64,000 bases of DNA from an uncultured Methanocellaceae archaeon (GCA_963780625.1 CAWACH010000006.1:472798-536797), one strand, 5' to 3'; shown: positions 9,648 through 23,250, counted from the stretch's first letter. Translations and numbers: made by a program. Notes: generated from the sequence alone by a model not told the origin.

Positions 9648-10646
9648 ATGTCGTTAAAAAGTAATGACGAGGCTGTATCGGTGATCATAGCAACGCTCAT
9701 GCTCATCGTAGTCGCCATCGTAGGGGCTTTGACAGTCGCGTATATTATGGGAGCTTTTTCAACGAACGTTTCAAAACAAGTAACCCTTCCCGGATCGCCA
9801 ACCGCTACACCGGGCCCGTCCGAGAATATGCTGATCGGGGATAAAGCGCTTACATATCCGATCGACCAGCAGCTATCGAGCCAATACATGGCCGGCCATA
9901 AAGGGGTCGTTATTAGCGATCAGTGCAGCGATGAGGAAGATACGAACATCGTTGCCTTAGGAAAGAACATTACGGACATTGTAGTATTGCCTCATGCGCC
10001 GTCCCAGTCGACGCTATTCATGTATCCCGACCTTAGATCATATTTTATCGGCGGCAGGGCCATCGTAGTCATTGCAAATGTTAATCTCAACATATCATCC
10101 GTAAGCCAGTCCGACCTCTCCATGGTGTATAGCCAGTCCCAAAAAAGCATTCCCTCAAACCTATCCGGGCTAACAACGATCGTCAGGAATAATGACGGAA
10201 AAGGAAGCGAGGCGATATTTGCGGGGTGGCTGACCGATGGCGAAGCCTCAAGCCTGGATGGCTATATGGCGGCACCGGCGGGAGTCAATAATTATACGGC
10301 TGTCAGCGAGGCGGATGTTCTGGCTAAAGTTTCCAGTACTCCCGGAGCTATTGGTTTCATCGACTGGAAATACGTGGCGAATAATAGCCAGGTGAAAGTA
10401 GTACCTGTTATTAATAAGAACACGCTTGTCGCCCAGACGCCCACAGACCAGAGTATCAAGGGCGAGATCGTCGGGATGAACGATGCCGATTACGATACCG
10501 GATTGATCGGGCAGCTATACTACGTGACCAATGGGTCGCCAGGCTCGATGGCCGGCGATTATATAACCTGGAGCCAGTCGCCGGAAGGCGCGGCGCAGCT
10601 CAATAATTGTTATATGTATGGGACCGCGGAGCTAGGTGTAAATTAG
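9648..10646 (+). CDS. Class III (pilin-type) signal peptide fused to a degenerate PstS/PBP substrate-binding domain
   Basis: N-terminus KSNDEA|VSVIIATLMLIVVAIV; PBP-like AIVVIAN, VSSTPGAIGFID, LYYVTNGSP, YITWSQSPEG. Confidence 0.8.
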   Translation: MSLKSNDEAVSVIIATLMLIVVAIVGALTVAYIMGAFSTNVSKQVTLPGSPTATPGPSENMLIGDKALTYPIDQQLSSQYMAGHKGVVISDQCSDEEDTNIVALGKNITDIVVLPHAPSQSTLFMYPDLRSYFIGGRAIVVIANVNLNISSVSQSDLSMVYSQSQKSIPSNLSGLTTIVRNNDGKGSEAIFAGWLTDGEASSLDGYMAAPAGVNNYTAVSEADVLAKVSSTPGAIGFIDWKYVANNSQVKVVPVINKNTLVAQTPTDQSIKGEIVGMNDADYDTGLIGQLYYVTNGSPGSMAGDYITWSQSPEGAAQLNNCYMYGTAELGVN

Positions 10647-10755
10647 GCATCACTCCCAGATCCTAATTTAAAATATATAGTGGTAAATGGAGTATGGATG
10701 TGTAAATAGAATATAAAGGTGAATTTGATAGCTATTCTCATTGACATATTGGATT

Positions 10756-10956
10756 ATGAGCGATAGTTTAAACAAGTTTAAAGTTATCGTGGAAAAGAGT
10801 TTTTGTTCTAAGTGTAAAAGAGAAGTTCTTCCGACTGAAGTATTAGCGGATCAGGCCATATTGGTCGATAATGGTTATGTCGTTGGAATACAGGATAATA
10901 ATCTTATCCATAAAAAATGCGGCGGTAAAGTCCGGCCGTTATTACTGAATTATTGA
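10756..10956 (+). CDS. Small putative zinc-ribbon protein
   Basis: CSKC ... HKKCGG; ATG at 10756 (ORF track starts at TTG 10741). Confidence 0.55.
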   Translation: MSDSLNKFKVIVEKSFCSKCKREVLPTEVLADQAILVDNGYVVGIQDNNLIHKKCGGKVRPLLLNY

Positions 10957-11203
10957 TCAACCCCTCAGACATTAATAAGTGATTTTTTTAGGTTTACAAA
11001 GTAGGCGATAGTGGACTATATAGAATATTGTAACAACCTTTATTTACTCAATTATTTGCTTAACAATAGAGCAGATCATAAGAAATAGAGAGGGCCTCTT
11101 CGCCCATAGCCTGCGTTTTACTGGAATAGCCGATGGGATAAGCCATCTAGGGAACGACAAAGGAGGAATAATCATCACTGGCCAAAAAAAATTTAATTCC
11201 AAA

Positions 11204-20524: not shown

Positions 20525-20535
20525 AAAACGAATTA

Positions 20536-21171
20536 TTATCCGAATCTTTCCCTGGTATCTATGTAAATACGCTCATCATCGAGCGCGTAAGGTATATTTT
20601 TTTCCGGTAACGGCTTTCCATTGAGCTTTGGTATGTTAATATACCTGGAAATACGGTCTTCTTCGTTAACGGTCGTGAACTGGATGATCCCATCCGCCAT
20701 AGCCCGGATGATGCGCTCATGCTGATCGGAAATAATGCCTATGTCCGATGTCATGATGATCATGCGGCTGTTTTTTCTGCTGGACTCTAAAAGAGTATTT
20801 AGTATGCCGACCAGGTCTCGGGGACCGATGTCGATGTTCATGAGAGAAAATCCTTCGACGATACAGACATTCGAGTCACATTCGTAGTGAAGTCGTGCCC
20901 TGTCATGGAAATTATCAATTATCTTTATTTTATCAAGTTCTGTCAGGCCCAGCCGGCGAACTTGTTGTTGTACGTCTTCCTTATTCCCGGTGGTTATGTA
21001 GGCGACGCTATTGCCTGCCGCTATGGCGTCCACTACTACCATCTGGGCGAATATTCTTTTAATATCCCCGAGCTCTTCCTCGACGAATAATAAGCTGTTA
21101 CGGGGAAGGTTTTCAAATCCAATACTTGCTAACGCCATAAGAACTCTTTGCCGCTGTTTTTTCAGGTGCAT
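20536..21171 (-). CDS. KaiC/RAD55/FlaH-like RecA-fold protein with a degenerate Walker A
   Basis: LPRNSLLFVEEELGDIKRIFA at the P-loop position, AYITT, IRAMADGII, DTRERFG C-terminus. Confidence 0.75.
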   Translation of the reverse strand: MHLKKQRQRVLMALASIGFENLPRNSLLFVEEELGDIKRIFAQMVVVDAIAAGNSVAYITTGNKEDVQQQVRRLGLTELDKIKIIDNFHDRARLHYECDSNVCIVEGFSLMNIDIGPRDLVGILNTLLESSRKNSRMIIMTSDIGIISDQHERIIRAMADGIIQFTTVNEEDRISRYINIPKLNGKPLPEKNIPYALDDERIYIDTRERFG

Positions 21172-21396
21172 TCTTCATATATGTTACGGTCGACAACGAA
21201 ATGCCAATAAAGGTTTTACATAATGACGCATTAAAACTTTTCGCACCGGATGAGACCATATCGTGATAAGTTCTCAATTTCATAAATTTTTTTCTTATGT
21301 TTATATTAATTCCCTTGATAAGCTATAGCTCGATATATATTAGAATATAGTCTAATGAAATGAAGCTTATAATCGATTGGTTTCAGTATAATACAT

Positions 21397-23250
21397 TTGA
21401 TGCTTAAGCTATTTCAAGATGATAGCGGAATATCCGAAATAGTTGGCGCGTTAATACTTATTCTTATCGTCGTTATCGCAGCTGCAGGCCTGGCTATGAT
21501 CATATCCCAGGCCGAGACCCAGCAGGCCAGTAGACAGGCGCACGATGCGGCTGTCAGTAATGAAAAGCTCGTCATCACTTCAATGGTACCAACTTATGAT
21601 ACTTCATCCGGTAAATTAATCTCGCTAGCGTTAAACATTCAAAACTTGAATGTCGATGACTCGAGCCTGGCGATAGTCGAAGTTAATAACGCTCCGGCCG
21701 CGAATATCACAAGCGGCGGGCGGATTTATGACTATAATAATCAGCTAGTAATACCCGGGTTCAGTAACATTACCGTCAATATTTATACAAAAGATTTCAT
21801 CGATCCATTGATCCTGGACCACTCAAGCCCTATTACAGTACAGCTTGTATCTTCATTTGCAAATTATTTCACAAGCACTATCACTCCGCCTACTGCAGTG
21901 GCGAAGTTCAGTGTTGAAACGGAGAATCTCGGGCTGGTACAGAGAGATTATGTCATGCTGGATGCCTCGGATTCCAGTGGAGACAAGGGTCAGATCAAGC
22001 TGTATTCATGGGACATTAAGGACACTTCCAACTGGACAAATGAGATACCCAACGGGCCGATAGAGACAAGCGGTACTAAAATAAGGTTTAGCCCGCAGTC
22101 GAAAGGCCCGTTTATCGTGACTTTAACTGTCAAGACCGACCAAAATGACAGCCATGCCATGATAGGCAAGACCGATGAGATGGAAATACCGTCTGACCCC
22201 AATTTCAGCCCGCCATTATCGCTCAAGTCAATATACTACCAGAGTAACACGACCATCGTGGCGACATTAAAAGATGCTTCAGGTAACCCATGCCCGGGTG
22301 AGGCGATAGTTTTCCAGGCGGGCTCGAACATACAGGCAGATCCTACGATGAATATAACGGATCTCAATGGCAGTGCAAAAGCTAACGTATCATTCATAGG
22401 CGCAAGCACCGGGACTGTTACCATCAGCTATGATAAGCTAATTAATAATATAGTGGTATCCGCGAGCTCCTCGCCTCCGAACGCGGACTTTAAAGCTGAT
22501 ACTCAAACCGGGTTTGCACCCTTACACGTGCAGTTTGCCGATCTAAGCAGCACCCCCACCGGCAGCATCATATCGAGACAGTGGAATTTTGGCGACGGAA
22601 CGTCCAATGATACGTCCCCTAGCCCAAGTCACATTTTTACAGCGGCGGGAACGTATACGATCACATTAACAGTTAATAATTCGGACGGCCTGAGCGATAC
22701 GGAACAAAAGAGCGCCTATATTATGCCTTATTCCGGGACGTTGGCAGCCGATTTTACCAGTGATCTCACTAATTGGATACTAACGTCGACGTCTCCTCTG
22801 GACGTCCAGTTCACCGATGCCTCTTCAGGCAACATTAACAGCAGGCAGTGGAGCTTCGGAGGCAGCGGCGGTAACGACACGGCTCAAAACCCCATACGTG
22901 CGCTTCCGTTCAACGGCGGCACGGGTACCATGACGTTTCCGGTCGTTTTAACGGTCTATAATTCCAGCGGATCTAACAACAGCATCTTGCATAACATAAT
23001 AATCAATCCGCATGCGCCGATCGCTGATTTCGTTAGCAACGAAACTTCACCTCTCACTGTCGAGTTCAGCGCCGGGTCTATGACCGGTACATCCCCGGGC
23101 TATTTCTGGGACTTTGGCGATGGCAGTAACATTACAGTTTATAATCCCGTGTATACCTATACGTACGCAACTAACGGGACATATACGGTTAAATTGAATG
23201 TTACCAATGCTTATGGCAGCGACACTTGCCAGAAGCTTATTAATGTCTAA
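21397..23250 (+). CDS. Pilin-like adhesin: class III signal peptide plus Ig/PKD domains
   Basis: FQDDSG|ISEIVGALILILIVV; PKD motifs WNFGDG, WDFGDG, GTYTITLTV, GTYTVKLNVTN. Confidence 0.85.
   Translation: MMLKLFQDDSGISEIVGALILILIVVIAAAGLAMIISQAETQQASRQAHDAAVSNEKLVITSMVPTYDTSSGKLISLALNIQNLNVDDSSLAIVEVNNAPAANITSGGRIYDYNNQLVIPGFSNITVNIYTKDFIDPLILDHSSPITVQLVSSFANYFTSTITPPTAVAKFSVETENLGLVQRDYVMLDASDSSGDKGQIKLYSWDIKDTSNWTNEIPNGPIETSGTKIRFSPQSKGPFIVTLTVKTDQNDSHAMIGKTDEMEIPSDPNFSPPLSLKSIYYQSNTTIVATLKDASGNPCPGEAIVFQAGSNIQADPTMNITDLNGSAKANVSFIGASTGTVTISYDKLINNIVVSASSSPPNADFKADTQTGFAPLHVQFADLSSTPTGSIISRQWNFGDGTSNDTSPSPSHIFTAAGTYTITLTVNNSDGLSDTEQKSAYIMPYSGTLAADFTSDLTNWILTSTSPLDVQFTDASSGNINSRQWSFGGSGGNDTAQNPIRALPFNGGTGTMTFPVVLTVYNSSGSNNSILHNIIINPHAPIADFVSNETSPLTVEFSAGSMTGTSPGYFWDFGDGSNITVYNPVYTYTYATNGTYTVKLNVTNAYGSDTCQKLINV

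Follow-up and report, generated by a model that had tools for sequence, protein, structure and literature searches.

The locus described here occupies positions 9648 to 23250 of a 64,000-nucleotide window (the whole stretch of DNA analysed, G000:C6:472798-536797) from an uncultured archaeon of the Methanocellaceae, whose genome assembly (G000) comprises 2.66 Mb in 6 contigs and is 75.7% complete. It encodes two pilin-like relatives of the phosphate-binding protein PstS, the permease subunits PstC and PstA, and a machine resembling those of type IV pili (T4P), and an initial annotation, made from the sequence, interpreted it as a putative phosphate "bindosome", in which binding proteins displayed on a pilus feed a Pst permease. 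We find that the gene content proposed there is partly confirmed and that its interpretation is partly supported: the locus may be one copy of a conserved methanogen operon that joins a pilin-type PstS, its own PstC and PstA and a dedicated T4P-like machine into a bindosome-like phosphate system, a reading that we believe about as strongly as we doubt it.

The first gene (PstS1, 9648..10646, + strand) is an intact open reading frame for a protein of 332 residues, composed of a long hydrophobic, pilin-like N-terminal helix and a degenerate PstS-fold domain. The protein marginally reaches PBP_like_2 (27.6 bits, cut-off 27) and falls outside the PstS family TIGR02136 (24.8 bits, against a cut-off of 206.6). 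Its AlphaFold model, built from 14 homologs (predicted local distance difference test score 83), shows a helix at residues 8-42 that a linker joins to a binding-protein fold of two lobes, and when the PDB was searched with this model the top 41 ranked matches were all phosphate-binding proteins. At the positions of the GSTT, GGS.G, DIG.SSR and R..GSGT motifs, the alignment shows unrelated residues. Judged from model and motifs, the protein thus appears to have a PstS fold, yet is no credible phosphate binder; its family is small, with 9 clusters.

The second gene (PstS2, a pilin-type PstS, 12946..13938, + strand) is open for its first 64 codons and then passes through 13 frame changes. The 64-residue frame scores 28.5 bits (cut-off 20) against TIGR02537, which models archaellin/pilin N-termini, and after frame correction seven of the eight inorganic phosphate (Pi)-binding residues are readable, with GSGT reading GCGT. 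The initial annotation had seen two class III prepilin signals and two phosphate-binding pilin-PstS genes. Both descriptions suit the gene at 12946, but the N-terminus of the 9648 protein, 62% identical to that of 12946 over 45 residues, stays below the pilin-model thresholds when taken alone (Pilin_N, 12 bits), and the protein lacks the phosphate-binding motifs.

Two permease genes follow on the same strand: a pstC-like gene (13998..14929) with 10 frame changes, an in-frame stop at 14259 and a readable EAA-type coupling motif, and a pstA-like gene (15062..15959) with 3 frame changes, an intact EAA-type motif and its last 160 codons (15477-15959) open. Counted by frameshift-aware dynamic-programming alignment to the intact orthologs of a related genome, G009 (see below), the changes in pstS, pstC and pstA add up to 26 (13 + 10 + 3), with the one stop, between 12955 and 15956. 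The predicted content and order, with pstC and pstA behind the second pilin-PstS, stand, but all three genes are frameshifted, and in the present assembly the set at 12946-15959 does not consist of open reading frames. We considered whether it might have arisen by recent duplication of the window's canonical pst operon and ruled this out, as its identity to the canonical copy is just 30-40%.

The machine genes behind pstA are all intact and comprise 1) a secretion ATPase of the type IV pilus/archaellum type, whose N-terminal region is variable and of low complexity (16317..18332, + strand; T2SSE, PF00437, 117 bits, cut-off 24.9), 2) a TadC/ArlJ-like platform protein (18360..19211, + strand; T2SSF, 55.3 bits, with weak ArlJ, UpsF and BasF matches), 3) a second such protein with a C-terminal Ig-like domain (19208..20524, + strand; T2SSF, 41.5 bits, and Big_1, 38 bits), 4) a single-domain KaiC/ArlH(FlaH)-like ATPase (20536..21171, - strand), assigned by PF06745 (32.7 bits), a weak ArlH match and synteny, and 5) a large pilin-type protein of 617 residues (21397..23250, + strand), with a class III-like N-terminus (TIGR02537, 23.8 bits, cut-off 20), a Big_1 domain and three PKD domains (PKD_4, 140 bits). 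The pilus ATPase, TadC-like pair, KaiC-like protein and PKD adhesin-pilin of the initial annotation are thus all recovered by profile matches. Among NCBIfam models the secretion ATPase scores highest with FlaI (388 bits), followed by BasE (198 bits), without reaching the cut-off of either, and it is 68% identical to the ATPase of G009 as aligned by HMMER, or 53% by tblastn over the whole G009 protein. No prepilin peptidase is encoded within the 64-kb window, as had been stated; a single Peptidase_A24 + Arc_PepC_II gene (FlaK/PibD-type, 271 residues) lies outside it on the same contig, at ~G000:C6:193.9-194.7 kb. With this class III signal peptidase, the genome holds the components by which archaeal type IV filament (T4F) systems are recognised, the others being the T2SSE ATPase, the TadC/ArlJ platform and subunits with pilin N-termini.

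The same arrangement is found in other methanogens. In G009 (uncultured Methanocella, contig CAZJRS010000033.1), eight intact genes stand in the same order as in the window, encoding a pilin-PstS of 342 residues, PstC (315), PstA (337), the ATPase (805), two TadC proteins (286 and 441), the KaiC-like protein (202, on the opposite strand) and a pilin (469), with 4-nt overlaps at pstC/pstA, pstA/ATPase and tadC1/tadC2. When one genome was scanned per species, pilin-PstS, PstC, PstA and ATPase turned up together in Methanoculleus, Methanofollis and Methanomicrobiales metagenome-assembled genomes (MAGs). A metagenome contig has the order PstA-ATPase-TadC-TadC-KaiC-pilin, the closest relative in the metagenome scan having an ATPase 74% identical to that of the window. 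Carriers include genomes of 1-2 contigs; the named records, including Methanoculleus, are all MAGs.

To gauge this linkage we used 401 genomes sampled evenly across the phylum, in which ATPases at least 50% identical to that of the window form a distinct group in about 25 genomes, and fetched 20 loci of such ATPases with their flanks. Pst genes stand directly 5' of the ATPase in 17 of the 20, one of which ends at a contig edge, and 15 of these 17 also have the KaiC-like gene, one of the remaining two being cut by a contig end. The 17 loci represent five genera in three families (under anonymous labels), or seven genera in four families once G009 and the genus of the window are added. In most loci, pstC, pstA, the ATPase gene, tadC1 and tadC2 are joined by codon overlaps of 4-8 nt or by gaps of 0-2 nt. 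As these loci were fetched independently and 17 of the 20 repeat the order, we take the linkage to lie beyond chance. A synteny check of pilin-PstS with the ATPase and TadC genes across methanogens had been suggested in the initial annotation, and conservation is what it reveals, with an intact set in G009 and the same linkage in Methanoculleus and Methanofollis. Within Methanocellia the distribution is patchy: the window genome has the system twice, G009 and one fragmentary genome have it too, and it is absent from all four single-contig Methanocellia genomes.

Separately, genomes of just 0.7-1.1 Mb from another family of the phylum (G020:C1:498000-514000, and G110) retain the complete pilin-PstS/PstCA/pilus operon, and its retention in reduced genomes suggests that it is of importance to the cell. 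Bathyarchaeia and Methanomethylicia have ATPases that are less closely related (38-45% identity); these were considered as further bindosomes and set aside, since the two ABC ATPases upstream of them belong to an energy-coupling factor transporter (CbiQ).

In the orthologs, a pilin-type N-terminus goes together with the phosphate-binding residues. The pilin-PstS of G009 passes both TIGR02537 and PBP_like_2 (80 bits) and conserves T10, S38, D56, R135, S139, G140 and T141 of Escherichia coli PstS; F11, a backbone contact in the E. coli protein, is Ser, and we count eight of eight Pi-binding residues as kept. The Pi-binding motifs are also kept in the Methanoculleus and Methanofollis proteins. 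Across orders, the N-terminal 45 residues are near-invariant (..E[AG][GA]VSPIVATLVL[IV]VVA..GAAAVG..MG.FS), which, to judge by the sequence, is more than a membrane anchor would need, and processing by a prepilin peptidase is predicted. PstC and PstA retain the EAA coupling motif, which contacts the ABC ATPase, and the G009 orthologs carry the BPD_transp_1 domain.

This helix and the gene order bear on a reading that we regard as unlikely, namely that the association reflects co-regulation only: the pilin helix would merely anchor PstS, the machine would build an adhesive PKD pilus induced together with phosphate uptake, and PstS would never be handled by it. The large PKD/Ig adhesin-like pilin of the locus fits such a role, as does the position of the operon near the canonical pst operon and its AbrB-PhoU regulator in both Methanocellaceae genomes, and surface structures under phosphate control have bacterial precedents, such as multidrug-resistant Pseudomonas aeruginosa, where PstS occurs in extracellular appendage-like structures (PMC2242829). 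That parallel goes no further than analogy, as the system is bacterial and, in the portion of that report available to us, its PstS lacks an N-terminus of the pilin type and a linked pilus operon goes unmentioned. What speaks against mere co-induction is that the translationally coupled order pstA-ATPase-tadC is kept across families, that the helix of about 45 residues is almost invariant in all paralogs and orthologs with the periplasmic binding protein (PBP) fold, exceeding the needs of a simple anchor, and that the canonical PstS of the same genome is anchored by a lipobox instead.

The homology of ATPase and platform to components of type II and type IV secretion would likewise accommodate a secretion device, a type II secretion-like pseudopilus that releases PstS or other phosphate scavengers beyond the S-layer with no display at all. 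We consider this highly improbable: PstS itself bears the pilin-type helix and so resembles a subunit rather than a cargo, the fetched loci share no further gene that could encode a cargo, and a released PstS could not pass phosphate to PstCA.

A bindosome-like phosphate system would also need an ATPase for its permease. None of the pilus-linked operons inspected has a PstB. In the window genome the sole true PstB (32943-33707) belongs to the canonical phosphate operon (28805..34372, + strand), whose profile matches identify an AbrB-PhoU regulator, a lipoprotein PstS, PstC, PstA, PstB and PhoU; its PstS, at 30181, has the lipobox LVLGC and passes TIGR02136 (228.7 bits, cut-off 206.6), in agreement with its initial description as a lipobox protein. 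Each of five genomes checked has exactly one true PstB above the family cut-off, always outside the pilus-linked operon, at a distance of more than 1 Mb in two Methanoculleus-type genomes and about 100 kb in G020. With the sole PstB encoded elsewhere, the pilus-linked PstCA would have to borrow it, as first proposed.

The comparison with canonical PstSCAB-PhoU (E. coli PstS, 1IXH and 9K3S) summarises how far the pilus-linked set has diverged. The two share the PstS fold, the Pi-binding residues and the EAA motif of PstC and PstA. In contrast, the pilus-linked PstS has a pilin-type signal in place of the lipobox/Sec signal, the operon lacks PstB and PhoU and has a secretion ATPase gene after pstA, and its PstA belongs to a clade (support 100/100 in the PstA tree) separate from that of the canonical Methanocellaceae PstA. 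Two genomes of the same genus, G002 (contig C2) and G004 (contig C8), have PstA proteins of the pilus clade in ordinary operons with lipobox PstS, PstC, PstA, PstB and PhoU. Because these PstA proteins fall in the same clade, the pilus-linked set probably arose from an operon of this ordinary lipobox-PstS/PstB type.

Whether the frame changes of the window's own copy are errors or decay affects how much of this applies to its organism. They are all of 1 or 2 bases, evenly divided between both kinds. Their sites are not rich in homopolymers, as the longest runs nearby are on average no longer than in the intact neighbour genes, which rules out homopolymer (nanopore-type) errors as well as natural slippage. 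There are no multi-codon indels in pstS, pstC or pstA, and one stop. At otherwise invariant columns, the frame-corrected window proteins show about as many unique changes as those of G009 (window versus G009: 23 vs 17, 18 vs 17 and 15 vs 20), and in the PstA tree the terminal branch of the window protein is not flagged as aberrant. Elsewhere in the assembly, the sole gene for elongation factor 2 (EF-2; G000:C6:~223000-225300) is divided over three frames within ~300 nt (GTP_EFTU + D2, EFG_III, and EFG_IV + EFG_C). Since an essential gene is thereby broken twice within so short a distance, the assembly must contain clustered indel errors. A frameshift also splits hsdS, the type I restriction specificity gene (G000:C2:~180300-181000), once, with Methylase_S positions 10-66 and 68-162 in two frames; four long aminoacyl-tRNA synthetases are intact. 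A codon-score screen for further frameshift islands was not selective, and of two candidate islands one held a single split gene.

Taken together, the single-base scale of the changes away from homopolymers, the lone stop, the lack of an excess of residue changes and the split EF-2 lead us to favour, with reasonable confidence, clustered consensus errors of a noisy assembly, and as the frame changes are most likely such errors, the operon is probably intact in the organism itself. Under the alternative, which we find doubtful, these are true pseudogenes: the phosphate arm (pilin-PstS, pstC and pstA) would have decayed in this strain, and the machine would have been kept for other pilin-type cargo, which could be the protein at 9648, the pilin with PKD domains or paralogs of the kind encoded on contig C2. 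It would explain why the 26 frame changes and the stop are restricted to exactly three genes with both flanks intact, why the critical Ser of GSGT reads Cys, and why the window PstA has the longest terminal branch of its clade (0.76); in addition, a paralogous machine on C2 does entirely without PstCA, and three of the 20 related loci lack Pst genes. Against it, 26 independent indels should have come with many substitutions, several stops and some larger deletions, yet the region has a single stop, lacks multi-codon indels and shows no surplus of unique residue changes; natural slippage concentrates at homopolymers, and these indels lie elsewhere; and the assembly also has two breaks in its essential EF-2 gene.

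That second machine (G000:C2:338027-367230) lies directly 3' of a gene for a 327-residue pilin-PBP protein and has neither PstCA nor KaiC. Its proteins are 71% (ATPase), 72% and 61% (the TadC pair) and 39% (Ig pilin) identical to those of the window, and its surroundings comprise molybdopterin, formylmethanofuran dehydrogenase and metal ABC genes. Contig C2 encodes four more pilin-PBP paralogs, the 327-residue protein among them. Three C2 paralogs join a helix of the 9648 type and a degenerate PstS-fold module (40-51% identity) to an extra C-terminal domain: Peripla_BP_2 (BtuF/FhuD-type) in one, adjoining a FecCD permease and an ABC ATPase; SBP_bac_11 (ModA-type) in another; and a 217-residue domain without family assignment in the third. 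When relatives of the 9648 protein with longer fusions were sought, the only one to emerge was a 615-residue protein of the window genome itself. The module of helix and dead PstS fold looks like a stalk for mounting other binding domains, and because in this genome it also carries BtuF-like and ModA-like domains, the fusions are the strongest hint that the machines display several binding proteins. By domain type, the ligand of the BtuF-like domain would be a metal chelate or corrinoid, and that of the ModA-like domain molybdate or tungstate. A multi-substrate bindosome of Methanocellales and Methanomicrobiales, in which a machine coupled to PstCA mounts pilin-PstS, and in this lineage BtuF-like and ModA-like stalks too, having evolved apart from the Bas system of Sulfolobus, is a tentative extension of these observations, possible rather than probable.

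On paper, the machine does resemble the Saccharolobus bindosome (PMC3047682), in which binding proteins of ABC transporters likewise carry class III (pilin-type) signals, a dedicated T4P-like ATPase and membrane platform are present, and the binding proteins serve ordinary ABC permeases. The initial annotation had invoked the Bas assembly system itself; this match fails, as by its profile scores the machine is not orthologous to BasEF (BasE, NF053672, 198 bits against a cut-off of 1000; BasF, NF053673, 33.9 against 1300; FlaI scores higher). The Sulfolobus system handles sugar and the methanogen operon phosphate; the former keeps its binding proteins with their transporters, away from basEF, whereas the latter has binding protein and permease inside the machine operon, without a gene for the nucleotide-binding subunit; and the methanogen operon encodes two TadC proteins, an ArlH-like ATPase and a large Ig/PKD pilin where Sulfolobus has BasABC.

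If the bindosome-like reading is correct, the FlaK/PibD-type peptidase of the genome would trim the pilin-type signal of PstS, and the ATPase-TadC platform would extract the helix of PstS from the membrane and build it into a short assembly on the cell surface, pilus-like or bindosome-like and adjacent to the permease, perhaps including the large Ig/PKD pilin. Bound phosphate would then be handed to PstCA, energised by the lone PstB of the canonical operon.

Several observations weigh against this reading. Polymerisation, display, signal processing and phosphate delivery are deduced from sequence in every carrier of the operon. PstS (~30 kDa) and pilins of 469-617 residues are large for filament subunits, and there is no small pilin within the operon. 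At position -2 of the presumed cleavage site stands E, Q or A and not the usual K/R. Three of the 20 loci with this ATPase clade have no Pst genes, and the paralogous machine on C2, having no PstCA, indicates that the machine does not depend on the permease; nor is the PstA clade peculiar to pilus-linked operons, as its members in the ordinary operons of G002 and G004 show. For the window copy in particular, the frameshift region is one of just six 3-kb stretches genome-wide that are nearly without long open reading frames, the others being the ribosomal RNA operon and AT-rich islands, and its frame changes are 40-fold denser than any background rate that could be estimated.

Some neighbouring genes may have a part in such an assembly. 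Two small archaeal pilins of 132 and 158 residues are encoded on the - strand at 44263-44661 and 44786-45262 (Pilin_N, 44.7 and 60.2 bits); both lie in an AT-rich stretch, and similar genes occur in the same-genus genomes G002 (C2) and G004 (C8). These pilins at 44.3-45.3 kb could be candidate major pilins forming a filament core, their tie to the machine of the locus being hypothetical. Just 5' of the pilin-PBP gene, at 8639-9214 and 9207-9605 of the window, a CarboxypepD_reg-like (Ig-like) membrane protein is encoded, as is also the case at the paralogous C2 locus, and this protein could be a conserved accessory part. The two pilin-PBP genes are separated by the gene (11204-12526) of a secreted protein of 440 residues with about 8 W..TYGG...D.G...GGY repeats (beta-propeller-like) and a C-terminal membrane anchor, which matches no Pfam family above cut-off.

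The bindosome idea is, in its general form, already in the literature, and the phosphate operon would be a variant of it. A recent survey (PLoS Genet 2026, PMC13705601; preprint 10.64898/2026.04.22.720090) collected 4397 putative archaeal binding proteins that carry class III signals and proposed that T4F machines mount them, with such genes usually standing beside ABC transporters and not in pilus clusters, and with the tie to a specific locus unproven. The words phosphate, PstS and PBP are absent from its main text, and the operon is not described there. In the work of Makarova et al. (2016; PMC4858521), pilus loci are not said to contain ABC or PstS genes, and a literature search for class III signal peptides with PstS, or for pilins with phosphate-binding proteins in methanogens, returned nothing relevant. 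What the present analysis adds is the problem of the frameshifts, together with a second machine and paralogs with fused domains. The first of these shows that, in MAGs with long contigs, genes that look like pseudogenes can owe this to consensus errors, as the broken essential EF-2 of the same assembly illustrates.

Binding proteins with class III signals were recently reported to be widespread in archaea, and outside Sulfolobales no specific machine had been tied to them before. Relative to the proposal of the survey, the methanogen operon supplies a physical link between binding protein and pilus machine, as it unites binding protein, permease and machine in one translationally coupled unit. 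If the bindosome-like reading holds, the operon would represent a second, independent origin of the bindosome principle, and a new route of phosphate acquisition in the methanogens of soils, sediments and digesters.

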